Positions 1 through 31,786 of a stretch of DNA of 32,000 bases are shown here, in pieces (the first letter of the stretch is position 1; each line of letters starts with the position of its first letter). The stretch is from an uncultured Gammaproteobacteria bacterium (GTDB lineage: Bacteria; Patescibacteriota; Patescibacteriia; UBA2591; UBA6264). A model generated the notes under the pieces. The model was given only the letters and a program-made list of their open reading frames with translations. It did not search any database and was not told the DNA's origin. The DNA lies in the NCBI GenBank assembly GCA_964507075.1, contig CAZDOL010000006.1:1-32000 (forward strand), read 5' to 3'. The position numbers were made by a program, and so were the translations under genes.

Positions 1-14
1 AATTATTATTTATT

Positions 15-1118
15 ATGAAAATTCCATTATCAAACCCTGATATTACTAAAAAAGAGAGGGATGCTGTTTTAGAGGTTTTAAAAACTCCTAATTTAGCTTT
101 AGGTCCTAAACTAAAAGAATTTGAGAAAAATATGGCCAAATTTGCTGGCCGCAAACATGCCATTGCCACTAACTCAGGAACATCTGGACTTCACTTAGCT
201 ATCAAAGCTTTGGGTGTTAAAAAAGGAGATGAAGTAATCACCTCTCCTTTTTCTTTTATTTCTTCTGCCAATTGTGCTTTATTTGAAGAAGCTAAACCAA
301 TTTTTGTAGATATTGATCCAAAAACATTAAACATTGATGTTTTGAAGATTGAAAAATCCATAACTAAAAAAACGAAAGCAATGGTGATTGTTGATATTTT
401 CGGGCATCCTGTAGATTGGAATCCTATTTTAAAAATAGCAAAGAAATATAAACTAAAGATTATTGAAGATAGCTGTGAAGCAATCGGAGCGGAATATAAA
501 GGAAAAAAATGCGGGAGCTTTGGAGATATATCTACTTTTGCCTTTTATCCAAATAAACAAATGACTACTGGTGAAGGAGGAATAATCCTTACTGATGACC
601 AGAAGATAGCTAACTACTGTCAAGCCCTGACCAATCAAGGCAGAAAAGTGGAAAACGGACAATGGCTTAATCATAGTTATTTAGGATATAACTATAGAAT
701 GAGTGACATAAACGCTGCTTTAGGGATTGCCCAGCTCTCTAGAATTAAAGAAATCTTAGGAAAAAGAGATAGAGTGGCTAAGTTATATAACAAAAAATTA
801 AAGGATATAGAAGGAATCACTCTCCCTTATGTTGCCCCTTATGCGAAAATATCTTGGTTCGTCTATGTTATACAAGTACAAGTTGCCCGAGATCGTGACA
901 AAATTATGAACGAATTGCGACGACAAGGAATTAGTTGTAGTAATTATTTCCAATGCATTCATTTGCAACCCTTATATAAAAAAATGTTTGGATATAAACG
1001 AGGAGATTTTCCTATTGCAGAAAGAATATCCGACAAAACCATTGCCCTCCCCTTTTATAGTAATTTGACAGAAAAACAAATTGATTATGTTGTCAAAAAA
1101 TTAAAGGAATGTCTTTAA
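15..1118 (+). CDS. DegT/DnrJ/EryC1/StrS-family PLP-dependent sugar aminotransferase
   Basis: 367-aa ORF. Family hallmarks are readable in the translation: NSGTSGLHLA, DSCEAIGA, and FYPNKQMTTGEGG (PLP-lysine context). Confidence 0.9.
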   Translation: MKIPLSNPDITKKERDAVLEVLKTPNLALGPKLKEFEKNMAKFAGRKHAIATNSGTSGLHLAIKALGVKKGDEVITSPFSFISSANCALFEEAKPIFVDIDPKTLNIDVLKIEKSITKKTKAMVIVDIFGHPVDWNPILKIAKKYKLKIIEDSCEAIGAEYKGKKCGSFGDISTFAFYPNKQMTTGEGGIILTDDQKIANYCQALTNQGRKVENGQWLNHSYLGYNYRMSDINAALGIAQLSRIKEILGKRDRVAKLYNKKLKDIEGITLPYVAPYAKISWFVYVIQVQVARDRDKIMNELRRQGISCSNYFQCIHLQPLYKKMFGYKRGDFPIAERISDKTIALPFYSNLTEKQIDYVVKKLKECL

Positions 1119-1146
1119 TTGTTGAAGTTGGACTTCCACATTCTAT

Positions 1147-1227
1147 TTAATATTGACCCCAGATAAAGGAAAGTAATTAATGTTGACGTCAGGGAGCGCG
1201 TTCCGCTCACTACTGGGGTCTTTTTTT
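1147..1227 (+). repeat. Mosaic intergenic hairpin repeat, copy 1. The outer frame is TTAATRTTGACCCCAG ... CTGGGGTC plus T7. It probably also terminates the aminotransferase gene.
   Basis: 1147-1192 matches 2324-2369 at 45 of 46 nt. GACCCCAG (1155-1162) pairs with CTGGGGTC (1213-1220). An inner hairpin GAGCG-cgttc-CGCTC lies at 1194-1208, and a T7 run at 1221-1227. Confidence 0.7.
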
Positions 1228-1239
1228 GATTAAATTATC

Positions 1240-1268
1240 TTGACAAAAAAATAGCGTTTGTATACAAT
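1240..1268 (+). promoter_or_regulatory. Sigma70-type promoter for the MNT/HEPN cassette, overlapped by paired palindromic operators
   Basis: TTGACA (1240-1245), a 17-nt spacer, then TACAAT (1263-1268). The palindrome TTGTATACAA (1258-1267) overlaps the -10. A second TTGTATACA lies at 1279-1287, with centres 21 bp apart. Confidence 0.6.
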
Positions 1269-1303
1269 AATAATACAATTGTATACATTTTTAACACAAA
1301 CTT

Positions 1304-1894
1304 ATGCTAAAAGCATTATTTTCTTCTAATACTCGCGTTAAACTGCTAACCCTGTTTTTTACTAATCCAGAGAAAGATTTTTATTTGCGAGAAATTGAAA
1401 AATTAATTAAAGAAAACATTACTTCTGTTAGAAGAGAACTAATTTCTTTAAAAAAAATAGGCCTTTTTGAAGAATATTTAAGGGGAAATAATAAGTATTA
1501 CAAACTAAATAAAGATTTTCCATTTTATTCTGAACTTAAAAATATTATTTTTAAAACCACTGGAATCAAAGGTGTTCTTGAACAAATATTAAAAAAAATA
1601 AAAAACATAAAACTATCTTTTATTTATGGCTCCTACGCGAAAGGCATTGAAAACGAAAAAAGTGATATTGATTTAATGATAATTGGCAGCCCCAATTATA
1701 CTCAAACGCTAAAATCTCTAAAAAATATTGAAAAAAAATTAAATAGAGAAATTGATTTTATTATCTACAATGAAAAAGAATTTGCGAAAAAATTAAAAGA
1801 TAATTATTTTGTCAGAACTGTTGTAGAATCGCCTAAAATTAATTTAATCAATAATGTCGATGAATACATTAGAACAATTATTAAGGGAAAATAA
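1304..1894 (+). CDS. wHTH-fused minimal nucleotidyltransferase (MNT-type antitoxin-like partner of HEPN)
   Basis: The N-terminus is ArsR-like wHTH (NTRVKLLTLFF...YLREIEKL...SVRRELISLKKIGL). The central region carries the NTase motif GSYAKG...SDIDLMIIG. The 3' end overlaps the downstream HEPN gene. Confidence 0.8.
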   Translation: MLKALFSSNTRVKLLTLFFTNPEKDFYLREIEKLIKENITSVRRELISLKKIGLFEEYLRGNNKYYKLNKDFPFYSELKNIIFKTTGIKGVLEQILKKIKNIKLSFIYGSYAKGIENEKSDIDLMIIGSPNYTQTLKSLKNIEKKLNREIDFIIYNEKEFAKKLKDNYFVRTVVESPKINLINNVDEYIRTIIKGK

Positions 1895-2318
1895 ATTAGA
1901 AAAAATCCCAATAAATTTTTCAGAAACCTATAAATTACTGAAAAGTGCGGAAGAAGATATATCTTTTGCAGAAAAAAATGCTGAAATTAATATAAAATGG
2001 AGTTTTACCATACTTTATCATGCTGGCATAAAAATTCTTAGAGCCCTACTTGTTAGCAAAGGGATAAGAACTAAGGGCAGGTCTCAACATGTTACCCTTC
2101 TACAGATATCAGAAAACTTACTTGAACAAAATTTAAAAGACTTGTTTAACTTTCTGGACACAATGCGTAGAAAACGGCATCATTTTATTTACAGTGCTGA
2201 CGAACATATTAGTCAAGCAGATTTAAAAAAAGCATTTAAGGATATTAGATATTTGTTCAGATTAATTCAAAAATATATTCAGTCAACCAATCCACAAAAA
2301 AAATTATTTAATAAATAA
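1854..2318 (+). CDS. HEPN-domain protein (toxin-like partner of MNT)
   Basis: 154-aa all-helical ORF with an Rx4H motif (MRRKRHHFIY). It overlaps the MNT gene by about 40 nt. An alternative ATG is at 1860. Confidence 0.75.
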   Translation: MSMNTLEQLLRENKLEKIPINFSETYKLLKSAEEDISFAEKNAEINIKWSFTILYHAGIKILRALLVSKGIRTKGRSQHVTLLQISENLLEQNLKDLFNFLDTMRRKRHHFIYSADEHISQADLKKAFKDIRYLFRLIQKYIQSTNPQKKLFNK

Positions 2319-2323
2319 TTATA

Positions 2324-2430
2324 TTAATGTTGACCCCAGATAAAGGAAAGTAATTAATGTTGACGTCAGACGTTTCCCCGTCGCTACGCTCCTCCTTAAC
2401 GACTGACGTCTAATGCCCACCATTAGGGTC
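2324..2430 (+). repeat. Mosaic intergenic hairpin repeat, copy 2. It has the same 46-nt left module as copy 1 but a different inner module.
   Basis: 2324-2369 is the shared left module. The hairpin GACGTCAGACGTT (2362-2374) / AACGACTGACGTC (2398-2410) has a 23-nt CT-rich loop. A small hairpin CTAATG-cccac-CATTAG lies at 2410-2426. The right frame is degenerate (TTAGGGTC, 2423-2430). Confidence 0.7.
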
Positions 2431-2470
2431 TTAGAAACTTTTCTTTAAAGATTATGAAGTTTTTTTATTA

Positions 2471-2530
2471 TATTGCACAGATATTGACATATTTGCACAG
2501 ATATTGACATATTTGCATAGATTTTGTACA
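2471..2530 (+). repeat. Three tandem 20-bp iterons (ATTTGCACAGATATTGACAT-like) upstream of the HTH-GHKL gene
   Basis: Units lie at 2471-2490, 2491-2510 and 2511-2530. The first two differ by a single base at their second position. The third has diverged (ATTTGCATAGATTTTGTACA). Confidence 0.8.
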
Positions 2531-2532
2531 AT
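2504..2532 (+). promoter_or_regulatory. Consensus sigma70-type promoter built from the iterons
   Basis: TTGACA (2504-2509, in iteron 2), a 17-nt spacer, then TACAAT (2527-2532, created by the diverged iteron 3). The ATG follows at 2551. Confidence 0.65.
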
Positions 2533-2550
2533 ATTATTCAGGTATATATT

Positions 2551-3279
2551 ATGGAAAAAAATAAAAATCTTTTAGCTATAAGTGAAGCAGCAAAGTTTTT
2601 GGGGATTTCAATAGACACCTTAAGGCGTTGGGATTCAAAAGGAAAACTTAAAGCACTCAAAAGCTCCGGCGGTCATCGTTATTATTCTAAGGAACAATTG
2701 GAGAATTTTGTATCTGACCTTAGGGCGATTGCCAGTATTTGGGCCGGAAGCCAAACAGCTTCAGAGTTGTTGTCAGATTACTACTGCTACACACAAGATA
2801 TTTTCAAAGCACGACTTGATAGAATGGCTTTTGACCTTGACCGCAATCCAACCACAAAAACTTTAACTTCCTTAATTATCGCAATAACAGGTGAGATTGG
2901 TAATAACTCATTTGATCACAACTTTGGCAATTGGCCAGATATACCTGGTATTTTTTTTGCCAGCGATATGAATAAGCGGATTATCGTCCTTGCTGACCGA
3001 GGTATAGGAATTCGGGCGACCCTTCTTCGTGTACGACCTGATTTAAAAGACGATATAATGGCCTTGTCTGTGGCATTTACTGAACATATTTCCGGACGTT
3101 TTCCGGAACGAAGAGGAAACGGATTAAAATTTGTTAATAATATCGCAACCAAAAATCCAATAGGCGTTTCTTTGCAGTCGGGTACTTCTGTAGCAGAAAT
3201 TGCCAAGCAAAACGGCATTCTAAAGGTTGGTTTGGCAGATAAATATATACGCGGCACCTTGACCGTGATAACATATTAA
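2551..3279 (+). CDS. MerR/excisionase-type HTH fused to a minimal SpoIIAB/RsbW-like GHKL (HATPase_c) ATPase or kinase domain
   Basis: N-terminus: LLAISEAAKFLGISIDTLRRWDSKGKLKALKSSGGHRYYSKEQL. C-terminal half: N-box EIGNNSFDH (E, N at +4, H at +8, as in RsbW/SpoIIAB), G1 DRGIGI, G2 RRGNGLKF. I moved the start from the ORF-track TTG at 2524 to the ATG at 2551, because 2524-2532 is the -10 element. Confidence 0.6.
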   Translation: MEKNKNLLAISEAAKFLGISIDTLRRWDSKGKLKALKSSGGHRYYSKEQLENFVSDLRAIASIWAGSQTASELLSDYYCYTQDIFKARLDRMAFDLDRNPTTKTLTSLIIAITGEIGNNSFDHNFGNWPDIPGIFFASDMNKRIIVLADRGIGIRATLLRVRPDLKDDIMALSVAFTEHISGRFPERRGNGLKFVNNIATKNPIGVSLQSGTSVAEIAKQNGILKVGLADKYIRGTLTVITY

Positions 3280-3284
3280 TTATT

Positions 3285-3554
3285 ATGCGAATAGAACTTA
3301 AAAAATTTGGCAGAGTATTGACTTCGCGTCCCGAGGGCAAAGAAGCTTTTGCGGCAATTCGTCCCACCCTTGACCCAAACGTTAACATAGTGGAAATTGA
3401 TTTTTCTGACATTATTTCACTTGCTCCTTCTTGGGGCGATGAATTTTTTACTGCACTCAAAAATATGTACAAAGAACGGGTGATATATTTGCCAACAAAA
3501 AACCAATCGGTAATAGAAACATTAAAAATTCTCAAAGAGGACAACGGACAATAA
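3285..3554 (+). CDS. STAS-like small protein (DUF4325-type), putative partner or antagonist of the upstream GHKL protein
   Basis: 89-aa ORF starting 5 nt after the GHKL stop codon. The segment VEIDFSDIISLAPSWGDEFF resembles the anti-sigma-antagonist LDLSxVxFxDSSG region. I recognise the family by recall, not by a search. Confidence 0.55.
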   Translation: MRIELKKFGRVLTSRPEGKEAFAAIRPTLDPNVNIVEIDFSDIISLAPSWGDEFFTALKNMYKERVIYLPTKNQSVIETLKILKEDNGQ

Positions 3555-3600
3555 AGTCCAGAAAAAAATACATGTCTTTAAGAGATAAAGCTTGATTTTA

Positions 3601-3716
3601 TTAATGTTGACCCCAGAGGAGTGCGTTCCGCCGACCAAGTGGGGACTTTTTAACGTCAACGTCAGACGTTTTCCCATCGCTTCGCTCCTCTTTAACGACT
3701 GACGTTTATATTTTTT
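3601..3716 (+). repeat. Mosaic intergenic hairpin repeat, copy 3 (two successive hairpin plus T-run modules), probably terminating the GHKL/STAS cassette
   Basis: TTAATGTTGACCCCAG lies at 3601-3616. GACCCCA (3609-3615) pairs with TGGGGAC (3640-3646) with one A-A mismatch, followed by T5. Hairpin AACGTCAGACGTT (3658-3670) / AACGACTGACGTT (3694-3706) is followed by a T-rich run to 3716. The inner GGAGYGCGTTCCGC module is homologous to 1193-1206. Confidence 0.7.
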
Positions 3717-3730
3717 GAATCTGAGTGATA

Positions 3731-3758
3731 TTGACAAAATCCGTGAATCTGCTATATT
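3731..3758 (+). promoter_or_regulatory. Sigma70-type promoter for the cupin gene
   Basis: TTGACA (3731-3736), a 16-nt spacer, then TATATT (3753-3758). A strong SD, AAGGAGGT (3782-3789), sits 4 nt before the GTG start at 3794. Confidence 0.6.
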
Positions 3759-3793
3759 GAGAGTAATAATATAAAAGTGCCAAGGAGGTACAG

Positions 3794-4294
3794 GTGAAAA
3801 TACATTTTTCTATTAAAGATGTTCAAGAGATTGAAACTCGCGGGCCATGGAGAACGAAGAGCGAGGGCAATTTAATGGTTCTTTTCTCCTTCCCTTACGA
3901 AATTGACATGAAAAGATTTCTCAGATGGGATGACAAAGAGCTGAAAAATATTCCAGACATCAGAGGACTGAGATATTACAGTGTCAGGAGCCTTCCCAAA
4001 GGACAAGTCGGAGGAGGAGAATTCCATAGAATAAGACAAGAAATTGTCTTCGCTACAGAAGGGTCTGTGCAATGGGAGTGTGAAGATCTCTCTGGGAAGA
4101 AAAAAATCACAATTCTTGCCCCTCAGAATGGGATCTGGCTATCACCTTTCATTCTTCATTCTTACAAAGTGTTAGAAGAAGGAACAGGGTTAGCGGTGAT
4201 TGCAAACACCACTTTTGATCCCGAAAACACTAAAACACATGACACATTTTCTCTCTCTGAATTTCAAAAACTTCAAAAAGAACATCAAAAATGA
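3794..4294 (+). CDS. WxcM/FdtA-like cupin (putative sugar 3,4-ketoisomerase-type glycan enzyme)
   Basis: 166-aa ORF with a GTG start behind a perfect SD. A cupin-like core is visible (GGGEFHRIRQEIVFATEGSV...LSPFILHSY). The family call is from recall of FdtA/WxcM C-terminal domains. Confidence 0.5.
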   Translation: MKIHFSIKDVQEIETRGPWRTKSEGNLMVLFSFPYEIDMKRFLRWDDKELKNIPDIRGLRYYSVRSLPKGQVGGGEFHRIRQEIVFATEGSVQWECEDLSGKKKITILAPQNGIWLSPFILHSYKVLEEGTGLAVIANTTFDPENTKTHDTFSLSEFQKLQKEHQK

Positions 4295-4308
4295 AAATCT
4301 TTCATACA

Positions 4309-4345
4309 ATGGACTATAAGAAATGCTTCCTATAGTCCATTTTTC
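4309..4345 (+). terminator. Intrinsic terminator after the cupin gene
   Basis: A perfect 10-bp stem, ATGGACTATA (4309-4318) / TATAGTCCAT (4331-4340), with a 12-nt loop, followed by TTTTC. Confidence 0.7.
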
Positions 4346-4369
4346 GTAGAAAAAACAGCATAAAAAACA

Positions 4370-4397
4370 TTGACCTTTTGGATAAATAATCTAAAAT
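4370..4397 (+). promoter_or_regulatory. Sigma70-type promoter for the CapD-type gene
   Basis: TTGACC (4370-4375), a 16-nt spacer, then TAAAAT (4392-4397). Confidence 0.5.
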
Positions 4398-4416
4398 AAT
4401 AAGAGATATTTAATTT

Positions 4417-6324
4417 ATGAAATCTGCATCTCTAAAAAATAAAATATTTCATAAAACAACTTTAAAGAAGACCATATTCTTTTTGCTTTGTGATACAATA
4501 TTAATAGCTTTATCTTGTTTCTTGGGATTTTTACTTCGTTTTGATGGGGCTATTGATCCTCAATATTTTTCAATGATTAAGGCCTTTGCTGTATTGGCTG
4601 TGCCTTTAACTATAGTATTTTTTACTGTAGAAAAATTATATTCTATCTCTTGGTCTTTTATCAGTATCAGAGAGATTATTAAATTAGGAAGAGCTATTAT
4701 ATTAAGTTTTGCTTCTTTGGGAGCAATTCTTTTTCTTCTTAAAGATCACGACATGTTTCAAGGATTCCCCCGCTCTATTGTCTTTATTTCCGCCTCTATC
4801 GCCCTTTTTACTACTGGCGCATTACGTTTTGCTAAAAGAATATATCTCTACGGCTTTAAGAATAAATCAAAAGGAAATGGCGAGAATAAAAATAAAATTT
4901 TAATCATTGGTGCTGGAGATGCTGGAGAAAAACTAGCTCGACATATCATTGCTACTCCTAATATACCATATTCCTTAAAGGGATTTATTGATGACAATCC
5001 CATGAAACAGGGTGTATTGATACATGGGATTAAGGTTTTAGGAAAAATCAAAGAGCTTCCTGAAATTATTTCTCGAGAAGGAATTAAAGAAATTATTATT
5101 GCTATACCATCTGCTCCACCCAAGGTTATAAAAGAAACCGTGGAGTTAGCCCGACAAGCAAAAATTGAAAAGATAAAGATTTTGCCCGGAACAAAAGAAA
5201 TTTTAGAGGAAAAGGTGAGCTTGAGTAATTTAAGAGAAATCTCAATTGAGGACTTGCTGGGTAGAGACCCGATTGAAATAGATACCTATGCCATTAAAGA
5301 ATACATTACAGATAAAATTGTTTTAGTCACTGGCGCTGCCGGATCTATTGGCTCTGTTTTATGTGAACAAATTTTAAAATTTAAACCAAGAAAGCTAATT
5401 GCATTGGACCAAAGAGAAACTGCTCTTTTTTACTTAAAAAGAGATTTAAATAAATTGTGGAAAAATTCATCTTTAGCAGAAAACCCACTAAATTTCGCTT
5501 TGGTTGATATCTGCGATAAAAACAAGATAGATAAAATATTTGAAAAATTCCACCCTAATGTTATTTTCCATGCGGCCGCATATAAGCATGTGCCAATGAT
5601 GGAAGACGACCCAGACGAAGCAGTAAAAAATAATATTTTTGGGACCTTAACAATCGGCCAAGCAGCTTTGAAATATAATACAGAAAAATTCGTCATGGTT
5701 TCCACTGACAAAGCCATAAATCCCACTTCTGTTATGGGAGCCAGCAAAAGAATGTGTGAAAAAGTATGTGTCTGGTTAAATAATAAATGGGGACAGGCAC
5801 CTTCGGAGCCAGTCCCCGGGACAGTCCCCTCTACAAAATTTTGTGCGGTAAGGTTTGGAAATGTTTTGGGAAGCCAAGGGAGTGTAGTTCCTATATTTGA
5901 AAAACAAATCAAAAAAGGAGGGCCTGTAGAAGTAACTGACCCAGAAATGAAGAGGTATTTTATGATTACTAGCGAGGCCTGTCTCTTGATAATGCAGGCA
6001 GGAGCTATTGGTCAAGGAGGAGAAGTTTTCGTGTTAGATATGGGTCAACCAGTAAAAATATTAGACTTAGCTAAAGAAATGATCCGTTTAGCAGGATACA
6101 AACCAGACGTTGATGTTCCAATTGTTTTTACGGGTATTAGACAAGGAGAAAAACTGTTTGAAGAAATCATAACTGCCAATGAATCCCCCACTAAACATGA
6201 AAAGATATTTATTTCCCATTTAGATAATAATGGAGATGATATGGAGAGAATCTTAAAAGAATTTGAACAAGCTTTATTGGAGATGAATCAAGAAAAAATA
6301 AAAGAATTATTGGATATAAAATAG
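4417..6324 (+). CDS. Membrane-anchored CapD/PglF/WbpM-type polysaccharide biosynthesis protein (nucleotide-sugar 4,6-dehydratase family)
   Basis: 635 aa. The N-terminus has hydrophobic segments. Two Rossmann motifs are present (ILIIGAGDAGEKLA and VLVTGAAGSIGS). Also present are YKHVPMME, VSTDKAINPTSVMGASKR and VRFGNVLGSQGSVVPIF. Confidence 0.9.
   Translation: MKSASLKNKIFHKTTLKKTIFFLLCDTILIALSCFLGFLLRFDGAIDPQYFSMIKAFAVLAVPLTIVFFTVEKLYSISWSFISIREIIKLGRAIILSFASLGAILFLLKDHDMFQGFPRSIVFISASIALFTTGALRFAKRIYLYGFKNKSKGNGENKNKILIIGAGDAGEKLARHIIATPNIPYSLKGFIDDNPMKQGVLIHGIKVLGKIKELPEIISREGIKEIIIAIPSAPPKVIKETVELARQAKIEKIKILPGTKEILEEKVSLSNLREISIEDLLGRDPIEIDTYAIKEYITDKIVLVTGAAGSIGSVLCEQILKFKPRKLIALDQRETALFYLKRDLNKLWKNSSLAENPLNFALVDICDKNKIDKIFEKFHPNVIFHAAAYKHVPMMEDDPDEAVKNNIFGTLTIGQAALKYNTEKFVMVSTDKAINPTSVMGASKRMCEKVCVWLNNKWGQAPSEPVPGTVPSTKFCAVRFGNVLGSQGSVVPIFEKQIKKGGPVEVTDPEMKRYFMITSEACLLIMQAGAIGQGGEVFVLDMGQPVKILDLAKEMIRLAGYKPDVDVPIVFTGIRQGEKLFEEIITANESPTKHEKIFISHLDNNGDDMERILKEFEQALLEMNQEKIKELLDIK
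5785..5831 (+). repeat. In-frame copy of a GC-rich intergenic hairpin repeat inside the CapD-type CDS
   Basis: 47 of 47 nt are identical to intergenic 31715-31761. It starts on a codon boundary and encodes KWGQAPSEPVPGTVP(S). Imperfect hairpin GGGGACAGGCACC-ttc-GGAGCCAGTCCCC, followed by GGGACAGTCCCC. Confidence 0.9.
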
Positions 6325-6346
6325 GTGCTTGGGGATTGGGATTTTA

Positions 6347-6379
6347 TGATGTTAACGTTTTTGACCACTGGGGTCTTTT
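6347..6379 (+). repeat. Collapsed or degenerate copy of the mosaic repeat frame (TTGACC|ACTGGGGTCTTTT)
   Basis: GATGTTAACGTTTTTGACCACTGGGGTCTTTT retains both ends of the frame seen at 1151-1227 but lacks the interior. Confidence 0.5.
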
Positions 6380-6408
6380 GCACGGGGTAAACCCGTGCAT
6401 TTTGTTTG
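6380..6408 (+). terminator. Intrinsic terminator after the CapD-type gene
   Basis: Stem GCACGGG (6380-6386) / CCCGTGC (6392-6398) with a 5-nt loop, followed by ATTTTGTTTG. Confidence 0.7.
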
Positions 6409-6433
6409 ACAAAAAATTTTACTGTTATATAAT
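6406..6433 (+). promoter_or_regulatory. Sigma70-type promoter for the abiE cassette
   Basis: TTGACA (6406-6411), a 16-nt spacer, then TATAAT (6428-6433). Confidence 0.6.
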
Positions 6434-6479
6434 ATAAATAACCATTTCATTTATTTTATAATAAACTAAAGAAACTGAA

Positions 6480-7124
6480 ATGAAAAAAGAAAGGAAACAA
6501 AAGACATTAAGCTGTTTTATGGTAGAAGAAGAACTGTTAGAAAGAGGTATTTTGATATTCTCTCCTTTAGAATTTAGACAAATTTTTAATGTATCACGTG
6601 ATAGTGCTACTTTTTTTATAAACTATAATCTGAAGAAAGGATTTTTTATTAAATTAAAAAATGGCTTTTATGCCCTTAAACATCACTTCCCTTCCGAATT
6701 TGAAATTGCTAATAGAATTTATTCGCCGTCTTATGTTTCGTTGGAATACGCAATGATGTATCATCATATTATCGCAGAAACAGTTTATTCTGTGACCTCG
6801 GTTACGACAAAAACAACTCGCAAATTTATTGTTAATAATGTATCTTATTCATATAATAAAATCAAAAAAATAGCTTTTACTGGTTATACAAAACAAACGC
6901 TAGACAAGAATATCGTCCTGATAGCTGAACCAGAAAAAGCTTTTATTGACTATCTTTATTTTGTTTCTCTCGGGAAAAAAGCTATCTATGATCGCATAGA
7001 TGTTAGTGGTTTAAAAAAGAAAAAGTTGCTTCATTATGCTAAATTGTTTGAAAAAATTTCGTTGATAAAATTATTAAACGATGTTTATGATAAAAGAAGA
7101 AGAGATAAAGAGATTATCTATTAG
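6480..7124 (+). CDS. abiEi: AbiEi-like antitoxin / transcriptional regulator
   Basis: 214-aa ORF directly upstream of an AbiEii-type gene and overlapping it by 44 nt. An N-terminal wHTH-like segment is present. The call rests on position and size more than on strong motifs. Confidence 0.65.
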   Translation: MKKERKQKTLSCFMVEEELLERGILIFSPLEFRQIFNVSRDSATFFINYNLKKGFFIKLKNGFYALKHHFPSEFEIANRIYSPSYVSLEYAMMYHHIIAETVYSVTSVTTKTTRKFIVNNVSYSYNKIKKIAFTGYTKQTLDKNIVLIAEPEKAFIDYLYFVSLGKKAIYDRIDVSGLKKKKLLHYAKLFEKISLIKLLNDVYDKRRRDKEIIY

Positions 7125-7815
7125 GGCCCAAACGAACCCTCAAATCATTGCCAGAGAATATGCACAACATAATTGCTTGTCCGAATTATATAGATTAAAA
7201 GGATCTGAAAATCTTTTATTTAAGGGAGGAACTGCTTTAAGAATCATATATCAAAGCCCGAGATTTTCCGAAGATTTAGATTTTACTGGCATAAATGGCA
7301 TCAGTTATCTTGAAATTGAAAATATTCTAACCAATACACTAAAAAATCTATCTGATTGGGGATTTAATATTGAGATTGATGAAGCCAAAAAAACAACTGG
7401 TGGATATTTAGCTAAAACAGTATTATCATTTTTAACATTTAAGATATTACTTAAAATGGAAATATCTTTCCGCCAAAATAGACAAAAGGTTGTAAAAGAA
7501 ATTTCAAGCATTGCGAATGAATATATTCCTAATTATGATATTATCCATCTTCCTCAAGAAGAAATAATAAATGGAAAAATAAGCGCTCTACTTGATAGGT
7601 CTAAGCCACGTGATTGGTATGACCTCTATTTCTTCCTTCGTCAGGGAATGCTCACCCCTAAACAAAAAAAGATATTGCCAAAAATTCTATCTGAACTTGA
7701 AAAGATAAAAATGGATTTTAAAAAAGAATTAAAAGAATTTCTCCCCTATAGCCATCAAATAATTATCAAAGATTTTAGGAATACTTTATCAAAAGAAATT
7801 AAAAAAAATTACTAA
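7081..7815 (+). CDS. abiEii: AbiEii/AbiGii-family (DUF1814) nucleotidyltransferase toxin
   Basis: LLFKGGTALRIIYQSPRFSEDLDFT is the family signature. A C-terminal KPRDWYDLYFF motif is also present. Confidence 0.85.
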   Translation: MFMIKEEEIKRLSIRAQTNPQIIAREYAQHNCLSELYRLKGSENLLFKGGTALRIIYQSPRFSEDLDFTGINGISYLEIENILTNTLKNLSDWGFNIEIDEAKKTTGGYLAKTVLSFLTFKILLKMEISFRQNRQKVVKEISSIANEYIPNYDIIHLPQEEIINGKISALLDRSKPRDWYDLYFFLRQGMLTPKQKKILPKILSELEKIKMDFKKELKEFLPYSHQIIIKDFRNTLSKEIKKNY

Positions 7816-7825
7816 TCTGATAACA

Positions 7826-8260
7826 ATGAAGGTCAAAAGATTACCGTTTAAAGAATATAAAAAAATCTATTCCACTGTGCCTCGACTATGTGTCGAGGTA
7901 GTTTTATTAACAAATAAAGGAATAGCTTTAACCAAAAGAGATATTCCCCCAGCTATCGGCAAGTGGCATATCCCTGGAGGCACAGTATTAAAAGGAGAAA
8001 ATCTGGAGAAAGCAGTAAAAAGGTTAGCTAAAGAAGAACTTGAAGAAAATATGGAAGTTCAAAAAATGCTTGGCGTAATTGAATATAACTTTACTAAATA
8101 TTTTGACCAACCAGTTGGTATCGCCTTTTTAGTAAAATTAAAGAATAAAAATTTACCGAGCAGTAAAGATAAAAAATATAAATTGTTTAAAGATATGCCC
8201 CAGAATATGATAAAAGCGCAGAGAGATTTTATAATAAAGCATAAAGATGAATTAATATAA
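7826..8260 (+). CDS. Nudix hydrolase, GDP-mannose mannosyl hydrolase (Gmm/WcaH/NudD)-like
   Basis: The Nudix box GKWHIPGGTVLKGENLEKAVKRLAKEEL closely parallels my recollection of E. coli Gmm ([28 protein letters not shown]), including the non-canonical R-L-x-x-x-E-L. It starts 10 nt after the abiEii stop codon. Confidence 0.65.
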   Translation: MKVKRLPFKEYKKIYSTVPRLCVEVVLLTNKGIALTKRDIPPAIGKWHIPGGTVLKGENLEKAVKRLAKEELEENMEVQKMLGVIEYNFTKYFDQPVGIAFLVKLKNKNLPSSKDKKYKLFKDMPQNMIKAQRDFIIKHKDELI

Positions 8261-8304
8261 AATACTAGTTATCCACAATTAATTTATTGACTTTTATCCT
8301 CTTT

Positions 8305-8366
8305 TGTAGTAAGTTAGTACCAGTTTACGACAAAACCTGTAGTAAATTAGTACCAGTTTACGACAA
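8305..8366 (+). repeat. Two 29-bp direct repeats (period 33 bp) upstream of the AAA ATPase gene
   Basis: TGTAGTAAGTTAGTACCAGTTTACGACAA (8305-8333) and TGTAGTAAATTAGTACCAGTTTACGACAA (8338-8366) differ at 1 position. A possible -35, TTGACT, lies at 8287-8292. Confidence 0.8.
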
Positions 8367-8379
8367 TTAACTAAAATTT

Positions 8380-9717
8380 ATGTTTTTAAATAGAAAAATA
8401 AATAAACATCTTCTATCCTGGAAAAATGCAAAAAATAGAAAACCACTAGTTATTAAGGGTGCTAGACAGGTTGGCAAGACTTCTATTGTTTTAAATTTTG
8501 CAAAAAAAGAATTCAATAATACTATTTATATTAATCTAGAAAAATCTGAACATTTGAAATATCTCCAAAATCCAATTTCGTTAGAAGAGTTCAAAAAAAT
8601 TATTAAAATTAATTTTCAACAAAATATAATTCCTGGCAAAACATTAATATTTCTTGATGAAATACAAAATTGCCCTTCTCTAATAAAACTTTTAAGATTC
8701 TTTAAAGAAGAATGGCCAAAAATTCATGTTATCGCCACAGGCTCTTTATTAGAGGTTATGCTTAAAAAACAAGGACTTTCGATATCCGTAGGTAGAGTAG
8801 AATATATTTATTTATATCCTTTGGATTTTTTTGAATACTTAGATGCTAAAAAAGAAAAAGAGCTTTTAAAATTCCTAAAAAATATTCAATTAGGGGAAAA
8901 AATTCCTTTAGCAATCCATCAAAGAACCATGAATATATTTCATGAATATACTATGATTGGAGGAATGCCTGAAATTGTAAAATTATTTTTAGAAGGAGTT
9001 ACAGCTGAAAAGTTAGAATCTATATATTCTTCACTTCTCGCAGGATACAAAGAAGATGTATACAAATATTCATCTGTTGCGAATGCTAAATATCTCAAAT
9101 ATGCTATTGAAAATGCACCATATTTTGCTGGGAATATTATTTCATATAAAAAATTTGGACAATTAGACATTAAAAGTAGAGAAATAAAAACAGCTTTTGA
9201 GCTCTTAAAAGATGCAATGATGCTTTCCCCTATTCCAGCGACACAATCGGTAGAGATACCATTGATTCCTAAAGAAAAAAAATCTAAAAAAATAATTTTT
9301 TTAGATGTGGGTTTAGTTAACCATCAAATGGGGATATTAAAAGAATATTTAAATATTAAGAATCTTAACTCTTTCTATAAAGGAAGGATAGCAGAACAAA
9401 TAGTTGGGCAAAATATTTTATCTCAATTTACACACTCTCCAGCCAAACTTTTTTACTGGGGGAAAGACAAGGAAAAGAGTAAAGCAGAGGTTGACTTTTG
9501 CCTAAATAAGAATGGGACGTTAATGGGAATAGAAGTAAAATCTGGGAAAACAGGAAGATTGAGGTCTCTGCATCAATTCGCTCAAGAAGTAAAAAATAAA
9601 CAAATTGTAAGAATATATAGTGGAGAATTTAAAAAAGAAAAAATTAAAATTAAAAATATAGAAAACGAACTAATTTCTATCCCCTTCTATCTAATTCCTC
9701 GTATTAAGGAATTATAA
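8380..9717 (+). CDS. AAA-family ATPase with a DUF4143-type C-terminal domain
   Basis: Walker A is GARQVGKTS and Walker B is LIFLDEIQ. A C-terminal restriction-endonuclease-like EVDFCL...GIEVKSGK motif is present. Confidence 0.85.
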   Translation: MFLNRKINKHLLSWKNAKNRKPLVIKGARQVGKTSIVLNFAKKEFNNTIYINLEKSEHLKYLQNPISLEEFKKIIKINFQQNIIPGKTLIFLDEIQNCPSLIKLLRFFKEEWPKIHVIATGSLLEVMLKKQGLSISVGRVEYIYLYPLDFFEYLDAKKEKELLKFLKNIQLGEKIPLAIHQRTMNIFHEYTMIGGMPEIVKLFLEGVTAEKLESIYSSLLAGYKEDVYKYSSVANAKYLKYAIENAPYFAGNIISYKKFGQLDIKSREIKTAFELLKDAMMLSPIPATQSVEIPLIPKEKKSKKIIFLDVGLVNHQMGILKEYLNIKNLNSFYKGRIAEQIVGQNILSQFTHSPAKLFYWGKDKEKSKAEVDFCLNKNGTLMGIEVKSGKTGRLRSLHQFAQEVKNKQIVRIYSGEFKKEKIKIKNIENELISIPFYLIPRIKEL

Positions 9718-9723
9718 ATATAT

Positions 9724-10464
9724 ATGATATTGTTTAAAATAATTCAACAATTTTTATTACCAAGTGTTTTTTTATTTGTGATTATTCTTATTGGTTTTCT
9801 TTTTCTGTTAAAAAGGAAAAAAATCGGCACAGTGTTTATTGTCCTTGGCCTCATATTATATTACCTCTTCTCTATCTCCCCTATCTCAGACTTAATTATT
9901 GCTCCTTTAGAGAATAAGTATCAACAAATAGAAGATGAGCAAGCATTGAGAGCTAATAAAGCTATTCTACTCTTGGGCGGGCCAGAAAGCGATATTCTAA
10001 GAGGAACAGAAGCAATAAGATTATCTATATTAAACCCAGAATTACAAATTATTATCACTGGTCAAAATTTTCTCAGCCAGGAAAAAAATCAAGCTTTAAA
10101 ATTAAAAAATCACTTAATTTCCCAGGGAATAAAAGCTGAAAATATACTATTAGAAAAGGAGTCAAGAACTACCGGAGAAAGCGCTAAAAACATCAAAATA
10201 ATGATAGAAACAGAAGAATTTTTCCTAATAACATCTGGATATCATATGCCTCGTTCTATATATTTATTCCAAAAAGAAAAAACCAATCCCCTCCCTGCTC
10301 CAACCGATTTCAAGGTCTATAAAAGCTTTAATAAAGAAAAATGGGGATTAAGATACAATAACTATAATCTATTAGATTTCTTCCCTTGCGCTCAGAATTT
10401 AAGAAATGTTAGCCTGGCTTTTCATGAATACTTTGGACTTTTATATAGCCAGTTTGTAGATTGA
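9724..10464 (+). CDS. DUF218 / YdcF-ElyC-family membrane protein
   Basis: Two N-terminal TM segments and the characteristic ITSGYHMPRS motif. It starts 6 nt after the ATPase stop codon. Confidence 0.75.
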   Translation: MILFKIIQQFLLPSVFLFVIILIGFLFLLKRKKIGTVFIVLGLILYYLFSISPISDLIIAPLENKYQQIEDEQALRANKAILLLGGPESDILRGTEAIRLSILNPELQIIITGQNFLSQEKNQALKLKNHLISQGIKAENILLEKESRTTGESAKNIKIMIETEEFFLITSGYHMPRSIYLFQKEKTNPLPAPTDFKVYKSFNKEKWGLRYNNYNLLDFFPCAQNLRNVSLAFHEYFGLLYSQFVD

Positions 10465-10488
10465 CAATAGGGTCTGTTGTGATAAAAT
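10461..10488 (+). promoter_or_regulatory. Sigma70-type promoter with an extended -10 for the small-protein pair
   Basis: TTGACA (10461-10466, overlapping the DUF218 stop codon), a 16-nt spacer, then TGaTAAAAT (-10 at 10483-10488). Confidence 0.55.
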
Positions 10489-10515
10489 AATTGATGTGTT
10501 TTAATTGACGAAAAA

Positions 10516-10854
10516 ATGAAAATTATTAAAGACAAAATTTCAATCCAAGAATTGAAAGAAATGGCCAAAAATATGTTTGGCGATTTAGTAAAAGCAGTAG
10601 TTGATGTGGAAAAAAGGATTATCGCCATTGATGCTGAATTACACTCTGACGAAGAAGCGGCATTAATTGAGGACGGTTCCCAACAAGAAAATCTTTGGGG
10701 AATCAATATTTATCCTGAAAATCAAGAAAAGCTAATTGAATTTGATTCAATGATCAACTTGCGTCCATCTCAAGGAAATCGCAGTAGAGGGGTAGATAAT
10801 CCAGAAATTCAAAAATTAATTATTGAAATAGTTAATGAGATAATTATAAAATGA
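10516..10854 (+). CDS. Small conserved hypothetical protein (DUF5674-like by recall)
   Basis: 112-aa ORF. Its stop codon overlaps the next gene's start codon (ATGA at 10851-10854). Confidence 0.5.
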   Translation: MKIIKDKISIQELKEMAKNMFGDLVKAVVDVEKRIIAIDAELHSDEEAALIEDGSQQENLWGINIYPENQEKLIEFDSMINLRPSQGNRSRGVDNPEIQKLIIEIVNEIIIK

Positions 10855-11183
10855 AATATCAACACCAAGAATTAGCTTCTGGTAAGTGGAGTAAATTAAC
10901 ATTTATAGAGCAAATGGCTAATATAGGAAGTGAGGTCGGAAGAACGATTACCTGGAAGAATCAAGACAAACCAAATTACAGCGAAAGAGCCTTTGAGCGC
11001 GCTTTAGAGCTTTTGCATCTCACTATAGCAGATATTAAGAATAAACATCATTTAAGGGGTCTGACGCGTCTCCGCGAAGCATTAATAGATTACTTCAGCT
11101 TTGATAATGAATTTAAATCATCTGACAAATTATGGCAAAATTACTTCTACGCCTTTAATTTTGCAGCCAGGCGTAATTGTTAA
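10851..11183 (+). CDS. Small helical hypothetical protein, translationally coupled partner
   Basis: 110-aa ORF with a 4-nt ATGA overlap with the upstream gene. I recognise no secure family. Confidence 0.5.
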   Translation: MKYQHQELASGKWSKLTFIEQMANIGSEVGRTITWKNQDKPNYSERAFERALELLHLTIADIKNKHHLRGLTRLREALIDYFSFDNEFKSSDKLWQNYFYAFNFAARRNC

Positions 11184-11210
11184 ATAAAATAATAAATATA
11201 ATAAAAAAAT

Positions 11211-12248
11211 ATGGATAATAACGAAAATAAAAACTATGACAATATTCATTTAAACCAAAACCGACCTCAATATTCAGGTCTTCCTAAAGAAGAAAAACCA
11301 AAAAACGAAGAAAAAAAACATCAAGAACATCATACAGACGAGGATGAAATTGATTTAAGGGACTATATCAATGTGCTTTTAAAAAGAAAATGGCAAATCG
11401 CCATAATCTTTGGAATTGCTGTAGTTATAGCTGGCATAATCAGTTTCTCAATGCCACTAACATTTGAAGCTAGTAATTTAGTGAAGGTTGGAAGCATTAA
11501 AAAAATACAATTACAGAACATAGATGATATTAAATCAGTTTTTAGAAGAGAAACTGTTTTGCAACAAATAAGAACAAAATTACAAGAACCGTTAGGACTA
11601 ACTGAAACAACAACTGGAACCATCTCCGAAATGTTTAGTATTAAAGAGGGAGAGAATGACGGTGATCAATCTGTTTTTATTGAAATTGACGGTAGAGCTC
11701 AAACTCCAGAAGAAGCTGTGGAGGTTGTTAATGCAGTTACAGACATATTATTAACCTATCATGGGAATATTTTTGCTGGAGCAGAAAAAACTTTTGATGT
11801 TGAAATGGAAACAATCACTAAGAGTAAAGAAAAATGTCAAAAAGATATTGTGAAAATCACCACTGATATTGCCAGAGTGAATTCTGATATATTAAAATAC
11901 GAAACAGAAATAAATCAAAGATCTAGCGCTTCTACTGAAGGACAGGGAAGAATAGCTGAAAGCTACATCAATCTTTTAGCTGAAACCAAAGATCAGAAAG
12001 AAAATAAGGAAGCTCAACTATTAAATTTAGAACAAAGATTAGTTATGTTAGATCAAGAGATACAAGTAAAAGAAAATGAAAGAATATATGAAACTAGATC
12101 TACTGAAGTTGAGGTTCCAGCGATTCCACCTGAAACCAGGATTGCCCCTAATAGAAAGCAAAATGTAATAATTGCTGGTATTCTGGGAATATTCATTGGC
12201 GTTCTTTACGCCTTTGCAGCTGAATATTTCAGTAAAGAAAAAGCATAA
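11211..12248 (+). CDS. Wzz/polysaccharide co-polymerase (chain-length determinant)-like protein
   Basis: The N-terminus has IDLRDYINVLLKRKWQI followed by TM1. A long coiled periplasmic-type region follows. A proline-rich PAIPPETRIAPNRK motif precedes the C-terminal TM. Confidence 0.7.
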   Translation: MDNNENKNYDNIHLNQNRPQYSGLPKEEKPKNEEKKHQEHHTDEDEIDLRDYINVLLKRKWQIAIIFGIAVVIAGIISFSMPLTFEASNLVKVGSIKKIQLQNIDDIKSVFRRETVLQQIRTKLQEPLGLTETTTGTISEMFSIKEGENDGDQSVFIEIDGRAQTPEEAVEVVNAVTDILLTYHGNIFAGAEKTFDVEMETITKSKEKCQKDIVKITTDIARVNSDILKYETEINQRSSASTEGQGRIAESYINLLAETKDQKENKEAQLLNLEQRLVMLDQEIQVKENERIYETRSTEVEVPAIPPETRIAPNRKQNVIIAGILGIFIGVLYAFAAEYFSKEKA

Positions 12249-31714: not shown

Positions 31715-31786
31715 AAATGGGGACAGGCACCTTCGGAGCCAGTCCCCGGGACAGTCCCCTCCAGCTCCTCTTTAACGACTGACGTT
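31715..31786. repeat. Composite intergenic repeat. The 47-nt GGGGAC hairpin element is joined to the right half of the ACGTCAG hairpin module. It probably terminates map.
   Basis: 31715-31761 is identical to 5785-5831. 31764-31786 (GCTCCTCTTTAACGACTGACGTT) is identical to 3684-3706. The repeat overlaps the map stop codon by 2 nt. Confidence 0.9.

Follow-up and report, generated by a model that had tools for sequence, protein, structure and literature searches.

A minimal HTH-GHKL/DUF4325 gene pair of Patescibacteria as a probable autorepressed kinase-STAS phospho-switch

What might be the role of a two-gene operon in which a DNA-binding domain is fused to a kinase-like domain and followed by a small protein of the STAS type? 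The question is raised by positions 2471 to 3554 of a 32,000-nucleotide stretch (positions 1 to 32,000 of contig CAZDOL010000006.1, GenBank assembly GCA_964507075.1; the whole stretch is referred to below as the window), deposited for an uncultured Gammaproteobacteria bacterium and placed by its GTDB lineage in the Patescibacteriota (UBA2591; UBA6264). Gene 1 encodes an N-terminal helix-turn-helix (HTH) followed by a GHKL-type domain, and gene 2, which is co-oriented with gene 1 and begins after a gap of 5 nt, encodes a bare DUF4325 (STAS-like) domain. The locus had been singled out in a preliminary description of the sequence as a candidate DNA-binding partner-switching or conflict module, and the open reading frames (ORFs), the 5-nt gap and the motifs quoted there were all found as stated, with GEIGNNSFDHN, ADRGIGI, ERRGNGLKFV and IDFSDIISLAPSWGDEFF located in the products. 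The comparison of the pair with its homologues, described below, led to the reading that it is probably a kinase-STAS phospho-switch that represses itself and belongs to the CapK/VapK class, in a pared-down version typical of the mostly tiny, uncultivated bacteria of the candidate phyla radiation (CPR).

Operator array and recognition code

The promoter of the pair was found to be embedded in operator repeat units, of which two are perfect 20-bp copies of TTGCACAGATATTGACATAT (2473-2492 and 2493-2512) and the third is degenerate (2513-2532, 14 of 20 positions matching), which confirmed the earlier claim of a promoter built from three 20-bp iterons. The ATG at 2551 was taken as the start of gene 1 in preference to an upstream TTG at 2524, because the promoter -10 hexamer ends at 2532; homologues of gene 1 begin at the same position. 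For comparison with other genomes, 80 homologous loci were kept, each from a different contig, and the synteny and operator counts were made over 79 of them. The operator consensus across the homologous loci was TTGYATAGATTT. Within the 130 nt upstream of the 79 homologues, TGCATAG was found 64 times and TGTATAG 51 times (0.3 expected in each case), and the operator motif was enriched more than 170-fold. The copies were always direct, with a spacing of 10 bp in 19 cases and of 19-21 bp in 54, that is, one or two helical turns, and at the chosen threshold two or more copies were present in 54 of the 79 loci. The operator cores lie at about -9 and +10 from the start of the -35 hexamer and cover the -35 element and the spacer. 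A position weight matrix of the motif gave 166 matches in the upstream 160-nt segments versus 106 in the other ~936 kb, both strands included. The scan of the flanks, which reached ~8 kb on each side per locus, revealed only two operator clusters outside the pair's own promoter in ~0.94 Mb of flanking sequence. One of these is a second array next to the pair at L032:4948-4990, with two copies of TGTATAGGTT placed 23 bp apart; it precedes two genes, an HTH-Fic and a NUDIX gene, and could belong to a regulon.

The HTH of gene 1 was recognised by Pfam as MerR/HTH_17 (residues 8-54, E = 5e-13), and its best matches among PDB sequences were the BldC-DNA complexes 6amk and 6ama (E = 2e-3), with the NCBIfam model HTH_BldC scoring 27.4 bits against a cut-off of 77 bits. 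BldC of Streptomyces assembles into head-to-tail multimers on direct repeats, whose number varies (PMC5859096), and the operator of gene 1 likewise consists of a variable number of helically phased direct repeats. Nevertheless, BldC is a stand-alone protein of 68 residues with the consensus AATTxxxxC, whereas in gene 1 the HTH is joined to a kinase-like domain and its motif is the one given above.

A further observation concerns residue 22 of gene 1, at the start of the recognition helix, and position 3 of the operator. Asp22 was paired with a TGCATAG-type core in 32/32 loci and residues other than Asp with other bases in 35/35, so that the rule was unbroken in the 67 classifiable loci (Fisher p = 7e-20, a value inflated by the kinship of the sequences). 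The loci lacking the consensus operator carry variant repeats that track residue 22: Gln, Ala, Met, Thr or Val was accompanied by a TGTATAG core (23 loci), Asn by TGGTAG (4 loci), Asn or Ser by GAGTAG (4 loci), and Gln with an RNWE helix by TTATAAG or TTACAAG (4 loci). When a tree was built from the kinase domain only, parsimony gave about ten independent switches between Asp and other residues, each with a matching operator switch. The pairings are chemically sensible, since a carboxylate suits the N4 of cytosine and aliphatic or amide side chains suit the methyl group of thymine. Judged by this covariation, Asp22 is the specificity-determining residue for operator position 3. Homologues with a MarR-type winged HTH (wHTH) at the N-terminus carry palindromic operators, and therefore a swap of the DNA-binding domain accompanies a change in operator architecture. 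Two such homologues (L065:6350-6513 and L081:7615-7778) have palindromes of the form TAGTTTATAGTA...TACTATAAAC over the -10 region.

The comparative evidence makes a strong case that the iterons serve as a genuine operator for the gene 1 HTH, as the preliminary description had supposed in calling them a possible autoregulatory operator. Taken together, the conservation of the motif across genomes, its spacing, its position on the promoter and its covariation with residue 22 led to the conclusion that gene 1 appears to repress its own promoter. A metagenome-wide scan for operator pairs was also made and returned 80 readable loci, 30 of them upstream of a gene 1 homologue; the other matches include catalase genes of unrelated organisms and were not separable from chance occurrences of an AT-rich pattern, so that no regulon emerged from the scan. 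In three metagenome contigs (L099, L145 and L149) the pattern precedes a catalase-like ORF, identical in all three, by 34 nt, with no gene 1 homologue near that ORF; this is probably such a chance match in an unrelated organism.

Kinase-like domain, STAS-like partner and characterised relatives

The matches of the gene 1 product in Pfam and NCBIfam were confined to the N-terminal HTH, and the nature of the remainder was approached through an AlphaFold2 model built from 69 homologues (predicted local distance difference test, pLDDT, 90.3; predicted template modelling score 0.82). Foldseek searches of the PDB with this model gave 177 matches with E < 1e-3, the top ones all being GHKL ATPase domains. 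The invariant positions, determined over 50-69 diverse relatives, fall on the three motifs of the fold: E115, N119, D122, H123 and N124 in the N-box, D149, G151 and G153 in G1, and R188-G-N-G-L-K193 in G2. On the strength of the model, the C-terminal half of gene 1 is a member of the GHKL/Bergerat-fold ATPase superfamily, and the HTH-GHKL fusion proposed earlier was borne out. HATPase_c_2 (PF13581) was weakly matched in 10 of 50 relatives (best E = 1e-3), although the gene 1 protein of the window was not matched by this family in the Pfam scan. When sequences and profiles were searched against the PDB, neither the kinase domain nor gene 2 gave a match. Between the HTH and the GHKL core, the model contains about 45 mostly helical residues and no STAS domain. 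The near-invariant W64 of this linker could, by way of speculation, be a candidate sensor residue.

Gene 2 was accepted as a DUF4325 protein at the family level because PF14213 is carried by most of 120 close homologues (70-99% identical), which pass the Pfam cut-off. The model of gene 2 (pLDDT 93) shows a beta-alpha-beta-alpha-beta-alpha sandwich, for which the highest TM-scores (0.55-0.62) were obtained with the STAS domains of RsbS and RsbR, in a Foldseek match that was non-significant. Ser49, within P48-S49-W50 at the N-terminus of helix 2 (helix 48-65 in the model), was invariant in 80/80 diverse sequences and is predicted to be the phospho-acceptor site.

Two systems described in 2026 are the natural standard of comparison. 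CapK (HTH-STAS-GHKL) and CapS (a STAS-wHTH repressor) sit upstream of immune operons, and single-stranded DNA (ssDNA) activates CapK, upon which CapS is phosphorylated at Ser54, the CapS dimer dissociates and transcription is de-repressed (Chambers et al., EMBO J 2026, PMC13373217). The toxin-antitoxin (TA) and anti-phage system VapKSC combines a kinase of STAS-GHKL layout with a STAS antitoxin and a PIN toxin; S48 of VapS is predicted to be placed for phosphorylation by VapK, and the S48E and S48A mutants behave accordingly (PMC13373217). The sequences of CapK, CapS, VapK and VapS were taken from Appendix Table S2 of that paper, and those of SpoIIAB and SpoIIAA were verified against the PDB (1til, E = 2e-68, and 1auz, E = 1.5e-71, respectively). 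In hhalign comparisons, the kinase-family profile was closest to VapK (E = 1e-5 over 136 columns including N-box, G1 and G2), followed by CapK (E = 1.6e-3, N-box to G1 region only) and SpoIIAB (E = 0.034, N-box to G1 region). The gene 2 profile aligned with VapS (E = 4e-4), itself a member of Pfam DUF4325 (E = 2.7e-17), and with CapS (E = 4.5e-4), and the latter alignment places Ser49 opposite Ser54, the proven acceptor; no similarity of this profile to SpoIIAA was found by hhalign. The earlier assignment of gene 2 as a DUF4325/STAS-like partner therefore holds at the family level, through the Pfam matches of its homologues and the link to VapS and CapS. By these profile alignments, the closest characterised relatives of the pair are VapK/VapS and CapK/CapS, closer than SpoIIAB. 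The preliminary description had likened the motif spacing of the kinase to that of SpoIIAB and RsbW, and needs the correction that the kinase domain is closer to VapK and CapK. Its remark that no assigned function was known for this architecture holds for the exact two-gene form, although characterisations of the related CapKS and VapKSC systems appeared in 2026.

The resemblance to VapK-VapS extends to a homologous kinase domain, with the N-box NSFEH in VapK and NSFDH in gene 1, a DUF4325 partner, the order of kinase gene followed by STAS gene, and a conserved Ser where STAS helix 2 begins. In contrast, VapK has an N-terminal STAS domain with a predicted ssDNA groove (F54) where gene 1 has an HTH, VapS has a C-terminal toxin-blocking tail that gene 2 lacks, and VapKSC includes VapC/PIN as a third gene, whereas the pair has no conserved third gene and its hosts are CPR bacteria. 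With CapK-CapS the pair shares a GHKL kinase domain with a STAS-type partner, here a putative substrate, an N-terminal HTH on the kinase and, by the comparative evidence, an autoregulated operon. However, CapK is an HTH-STAS-GHKL protein of 362 aa and gene 1 an HTH-GHKL protein of 242 aa, so the ssDNA-binding groove of CapK and VapK (W68 and F54, respectively) has no counterpart in gene 1. The wHTH of CapS binds palindromic operators whereas gene 2 has no DNA-binding domain, and the operator of the pair, unlike that of CapK-CapS, is an array of direct repeats that varies in step with the HTH of the kinase itself; deletion of the HTH of CapK, by contrast, had no detected effect (PMC13373217). 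CapK-CapS is moreover linked to an immune operon, while no conserved downstream operon accompanies the pair.

These comparisons also bear on the possibility that the pair is a classical partner switch, in which an anti-sigma kinase and its anti-anti-sigma antagonist would sequester an unlinked sigma factor and the HTH would serve for autoregulation only. SpoIIAB and RsbW are GHKL Ser-kinases of minimal size, as gene 1 would be, with an E-x-x-x-N-x-x-x-H N-box in common, and SpoIIAA and RsbV, like gene 2 in its predicted STAS-like fold, have a Ser at the start of helix 2. The alignment of the N-box to G1 region with SpoIIAB, the weak HATPase_c_2 matches in the family and the naming of one homologue as 'anti-sigma regulatory factor' in one source point the same way. 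Nevertheless, the similarity to these modules is marginal in sequence, with the SpoIIAB alignment weaker than that of VapK, the partner without similarity to SpoIIAA and the window protein without a HATPase_c_2 match. The two genes stand in the opposite order to spoIIAA-AB and rsbV-W but in the same order as capK-capS and vapK-vapS, and only in the pair does the kinase carry its own DNA-binding domain. The partner, encoded downstream, belongs to DUF4325 and not to the canonical STAS families (PF01740/PF13466) of upstream-encoded antagonists. No conserved neighbour was found, and the commonest families among the neighbours of the pair include neither a sigma factor nor a PP2C phosphatase. An anti-sigma switch is accordingly regarded as quite improbable.

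Distribution, neighbourhood and local setting

An exhaustive search with the kinase domain yielded 301 clusters at 50% identity, in which two forms were distinguished: a longer one of ~240-260 aa with an N-terminal DNA-binding domain, usually a MerR-like HTH and sometimes a MarR-type wHTH, and a shorter one of ~190-200 aa without such a domain. In a scan of one genome per species, relatives were found in at least 568 stretches, that is, in at least 568 species, labelled almost all as CPR/Patescibacteria, with Parcubacteria, Microgenomates, Peregrinibacteria, Kazan and Berkelbacteria among them. The DUF4325 gene lay directly downstream of the kinase gene on the same strand in 77 of the 79 loci, one of the two exceptions being at a contig end, and the synteny of the two genes across genomes was thereby upheld. 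Downstream of one HTH-less kinase homologue (L211:656-1591), a 312-aa protein was found with a weak N-terminal DUF4325 and a C-terminal SLT lytic transglycosylase domain, a fusion that suggests that DUF4325 can carry different output domains.

The surroundings of the pair were far less constant. The 548 flanking proteins of the 79 loci fell into 470 clusters, the largest present at no more than 6 loci, and no conserved third gene or neighbour was found among them. A Pfam and PADLOC census was made of the 150 immediate neighbours and included NUDIX (5), AAA_14/DUF4143 (4), ResIII (3), AbiEii (2) and integrase (2) genes, together with PolA, GAPDH, HrcA and RecG; NUDIX hydrolase genes were thus the commonest immediate neighbours in other genomes. 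PIN/VapC was not among the 25 commonest Pfam families of these 150 proteins, and no sigma factor was found among the commonest families. The neighbours being heterogeneous, the enrichment beside defence genes that the preliminary description had put up for testing was not supported. The family was absent from the 72,556 plasmids and 50,697 phage genomes searched, and a single match was obtained in 2.9 million viral contigs. Membership of the MADS system was also considered and rejected: the PADLOC mad1 match on gene 1 is confined to the HTH (residues 7-62), the window has no other mad genes, and mad2 was present in 2 of the 150 neighbours.

This distribution bears on a second alternative, a TA-like or abortive-infection conflict module in which one protein would inhibit growth, the other would neutralise it and the HTH would autoregulate as in type II TA systems. 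The kinase could then act on an essential host target, with the STAS protein as a pseudosubstrate or an antitoxin like VapS, which offers the precedent of a DUF4325 antitoxin under a related kinase. An autonomous, autoregulated two-gene operon without a conserved neighbour would fit such a module, as would its modest family size (the 301 clusters), the AbiEii, integrase, ResIII and Fic genes near some homologues, the position in the window among the TA cassettes MNT/HEPN and AbiEii, and the existence of pairs of HTH-less kinase and bare STAS protein without an output domain. However, neither protein of the pair contains a toxin-like domain and VapC/PIN is not among the commonest neighbour families; PADLOC recognises the HTH only, and clear defence enrichment is lacking. 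The virtual absence from plasmids, phages and viral contigs, the placement of all 80 kept loci on different contigs, a GC content generally matched to that of the host, and housekeeping neighbours (PolA, GAPDH, HrcA and RecG) as frequent as mobile ones also speak against it. A conflict module is hence considered unlikely.

Under a third alternative, the pair would respond to DNA damage and control an immune or stress operon beside it, in the manner of CapKS. The homology to CapK and CapS, the frequency of NUDIX genes among the neighbours and the second operator array of L032, upstream of the HTH-Fic and NUDIX genes beside the pair, can be cited for it. Against it stand the lack of a conserved downstream operon, the near confinement of operator arrays to the pair's own promoter (two other clusters in ~0.94 Mb), the terminator and separate promoter that isolate the pair from the next gene in the window, the absence from the gene 1 kinase of an internal STAS domain, the part in which CapK and VapK have their ssDNA-binding groove, and the absence from gene 2 of the wHTH that makes CapS the repressor. 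This reading was judged highly improbable.

In the window itself (Table 1), the terminator-like hairpin downstream of gene 2 and the separate promoter of the next gene indicate that the pair is its own transcription unit. It lies within a surface-polysaccharide locus with interspersed accessory cassettes that spans 15-12248, all on the + strand, and is itself one of these cassettes. The placement between an MNT/HEPN pair and other TA cassettes, as first described, is correct for the upstream side, where Pfam identified MNT and HEPN; directly downstream, however, are FdtA-like and CapD-like sugar genes, and the next TA-like cassette, AbiEii, is reached only further on. An ORF without assignment overlaps the AbiEii ORF, and a NUDIX gene lies 4.3 kb downstream of the pair. 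A TTGACA promoter followed by two palindrome copies (TTGTATACAA/TTGTATACA) is found at 1230-1300, 5' of MNT/HEPN, and the palindromes are probably the operator of this TA-like cassette. A scan of window positions 1-8500 against Rfam found no RNA family.

Table 1. Features of the gene pair and its surroundings, in window coordinates or, for the domains of gene 1, in residues.
Feature	Position	Strand	Remarks
Operator array	2473-2532	+	three head-to-tail 20-bp units, each with core TTGCA(C/T)AGAT
Sigma-70-like promoter	2504-2532	+	TTGACA 2504-2509, 17-nt spacer, TACAAT 2527-2532; 11/12 match
Gene 1	2551-3279	+	242 aa, ATG start
HTH region of gene 1	residues ~7-55		BldC/excisionase-type, MerR-like
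Codon of Asp22	2614-2616	+	start of recognition helix; covaries with operator position 3 (C)
Helical linker of gene 1	residues ~56-100		near-invariant W64, C79, F85
Minimal GHKL (Bergerat-fold) kinase-like domain of gene 1	residues ~100-242		
Gene 2	3285-3554	+	89 aa
Terminator-like hairpin and T-run	3626-3652	+	downstream of gene 2
Separate promoter for next gene	3731-3758	+	11/12 match
Mosaic intergenic repeats, upstream copy	2318-2412	+	
Mosaic intergenic repeats, downstream copy	3595-3708	+	
DegT aminotransferase	15-1118	+	sugar gene of polysaccharide locus
FdtA-like	3794-4294	+	sugar gene of polysaccharide locus
CapD-like	4417-6324	+	sugar gene of polysaccharide locus
Wzz	11211-12248	+	sugar gene of polysaccharide locus
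MNT	1304-1894	+	accessory cassette (MNT/HEPN)
HEPN	1854-2318	+	accessory cassette (MNT/HEPN)
Unassigned ORF	6480-7124	+	accessory cassette, with AbiEii
AbiEii	7081-7815	+	accessory cassette, TA-like
NUDIX	7826-8260	+	accessory cassette
AAA_14/DUF4143		+	accessory cassette

The hairpin repeats described earlier do flank the pair on both sides, but they are not part of the module. They are mosaics of two units, one of the form ATTAATGTTGACCCCAGA...TGGGGxC followed by a T-run and terminator-like in look, the other a 59-nt hairpin (GACGTCAGACGTT-23 nt-AACGACTGACGTC), whose copy at 2354-2412 recurs at 3650-3708 with 86% identity. The sequence ATTAATGTTGACSYCAGA gave 5 matches in the window versus 0 expected, and further mosaic repeats were found at 1146-1220 and 31774-31786, recurring after successive genes. 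The repeats were found only in contigs of this organism and were absent from all homologous loci of other genomes; they are therefore genome-specific intergenic repeats and do not belong to the conserved module. They may be REP-like or MITE-like. An interpretation as integron attC-like elements or cassette boundaries was set aside on the same observation.

The hand counts of GC (25/60, 28/60 and 12/60 in single 60-nt lines) that had suggested horizontal acquisition were exact. The GC content of the pair was 38.8% against 33.3% for the window (97.6th percentile of windows of the same size), with a GC content at third codon positions of ~33% against ~25%; the adjacent FdtA-like gene is as GC-rich as the pair. 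Over 68 other loci, the GC content of the pair followed that of the host (r = 0.80, mean difference -0.013), so the compositional deviation is a local feature, and horizontal acquisition is not supported as a trait of the family. A recent horizontal acquisition of the pair in this genome is weakly supported.

Proposed mechanism and significance

Several observations weigh against an autorepressed kinase-STAS switch. Pfam gave no GHKL match for the gene 1 protein of the window, and the top structural matches of its model are the ATPase domains of Hsp90/TRAP1 and of topoisomerases II and VI-B, not anti-sigma kinases. Gene 2 itself scored 22.3 bits on DUF4325 (E = 1e-4), below the cut-off of 23, and the Foldseek search of its model against the PDB gave nothing significant, the best match being a STAS protein with E = 0.53. 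No phosphatase was found among the 25 commonest Pfam families of immediate neighbours. The HTH-less kinases of non-CPR genomes adjoin a bare DUF4325 gene with no conserved third gene, from which it follows that DNA binding cannot be the pair's core function and that the model lacks an output. Lastly, the kinase activity, the acceptor role of Ser49 and the DNA binding of the family are all inferred from comparison.

The switch is nevertheless the reading that is probably correct, and it can be set out in three steps. In the first, which is strongly supported by the comparative evidence on the operator, the BldC-like HTH of gene 1 would read the phased direct repeats over its own -35 element and spacer, probably binding head-to-tail on one face of the helix and occluding RNA polymerase. 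In the second, suggested by homology and by the invariant residues, the GHKL domain would bind ATP-Mg, dock the DUF4325 protein and phosphorylate Ser49. In the third, the bound or phosphorylated state of the partner may change the oligomerisation of gene 1 on DNA and in this way set the level of expression. Beyond autoregulation, the switch may act on a small number of other promoters that carry the operator, or the STAS protein may have an unlinked protein as its target. A more specific form of the model, in which in CPR bacteria the kinase itself would be the DNA-bound repressor, placed head-to-tail on phased repeats, and the bare STAS protein a phospho-toggled anti-repressor or co-repressor, is put forward tentatively and is rather doubtful as a whole.

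The genomes of CPR/Patescibacteria are tiny and encode few recognisable regulators, and genetics is lacking for these organisms. Few of their regulatory circuits lend themselves to dissection by sequence alone, and this conserved, self-contained signalling operon, present in at least 568 species, is one of them. The residue-to-base code (Asp22 with C; Gln, Ala, Met, Thr or Val with T; Asn with G) is a directly testable prediction of DNA-recognition specificity. If the proposed switch is correct, the pair would extend the kinase-STAS principle of CapK and VapK to a minimal form in which the DNA-binding function has been moved onto the kinase, and a kinase-substrate role would be likely for a large part of the uncharacterised DUF4325 family. 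In the more specific and more doubtful form of the model, it would be a complete partner-switching circuit, with a built-in DNA-binding domain in place of the sigma factor, contained in one operon of ~1 kb, through which organisms that have very few regulators would sense stress or their energy state in a general way.

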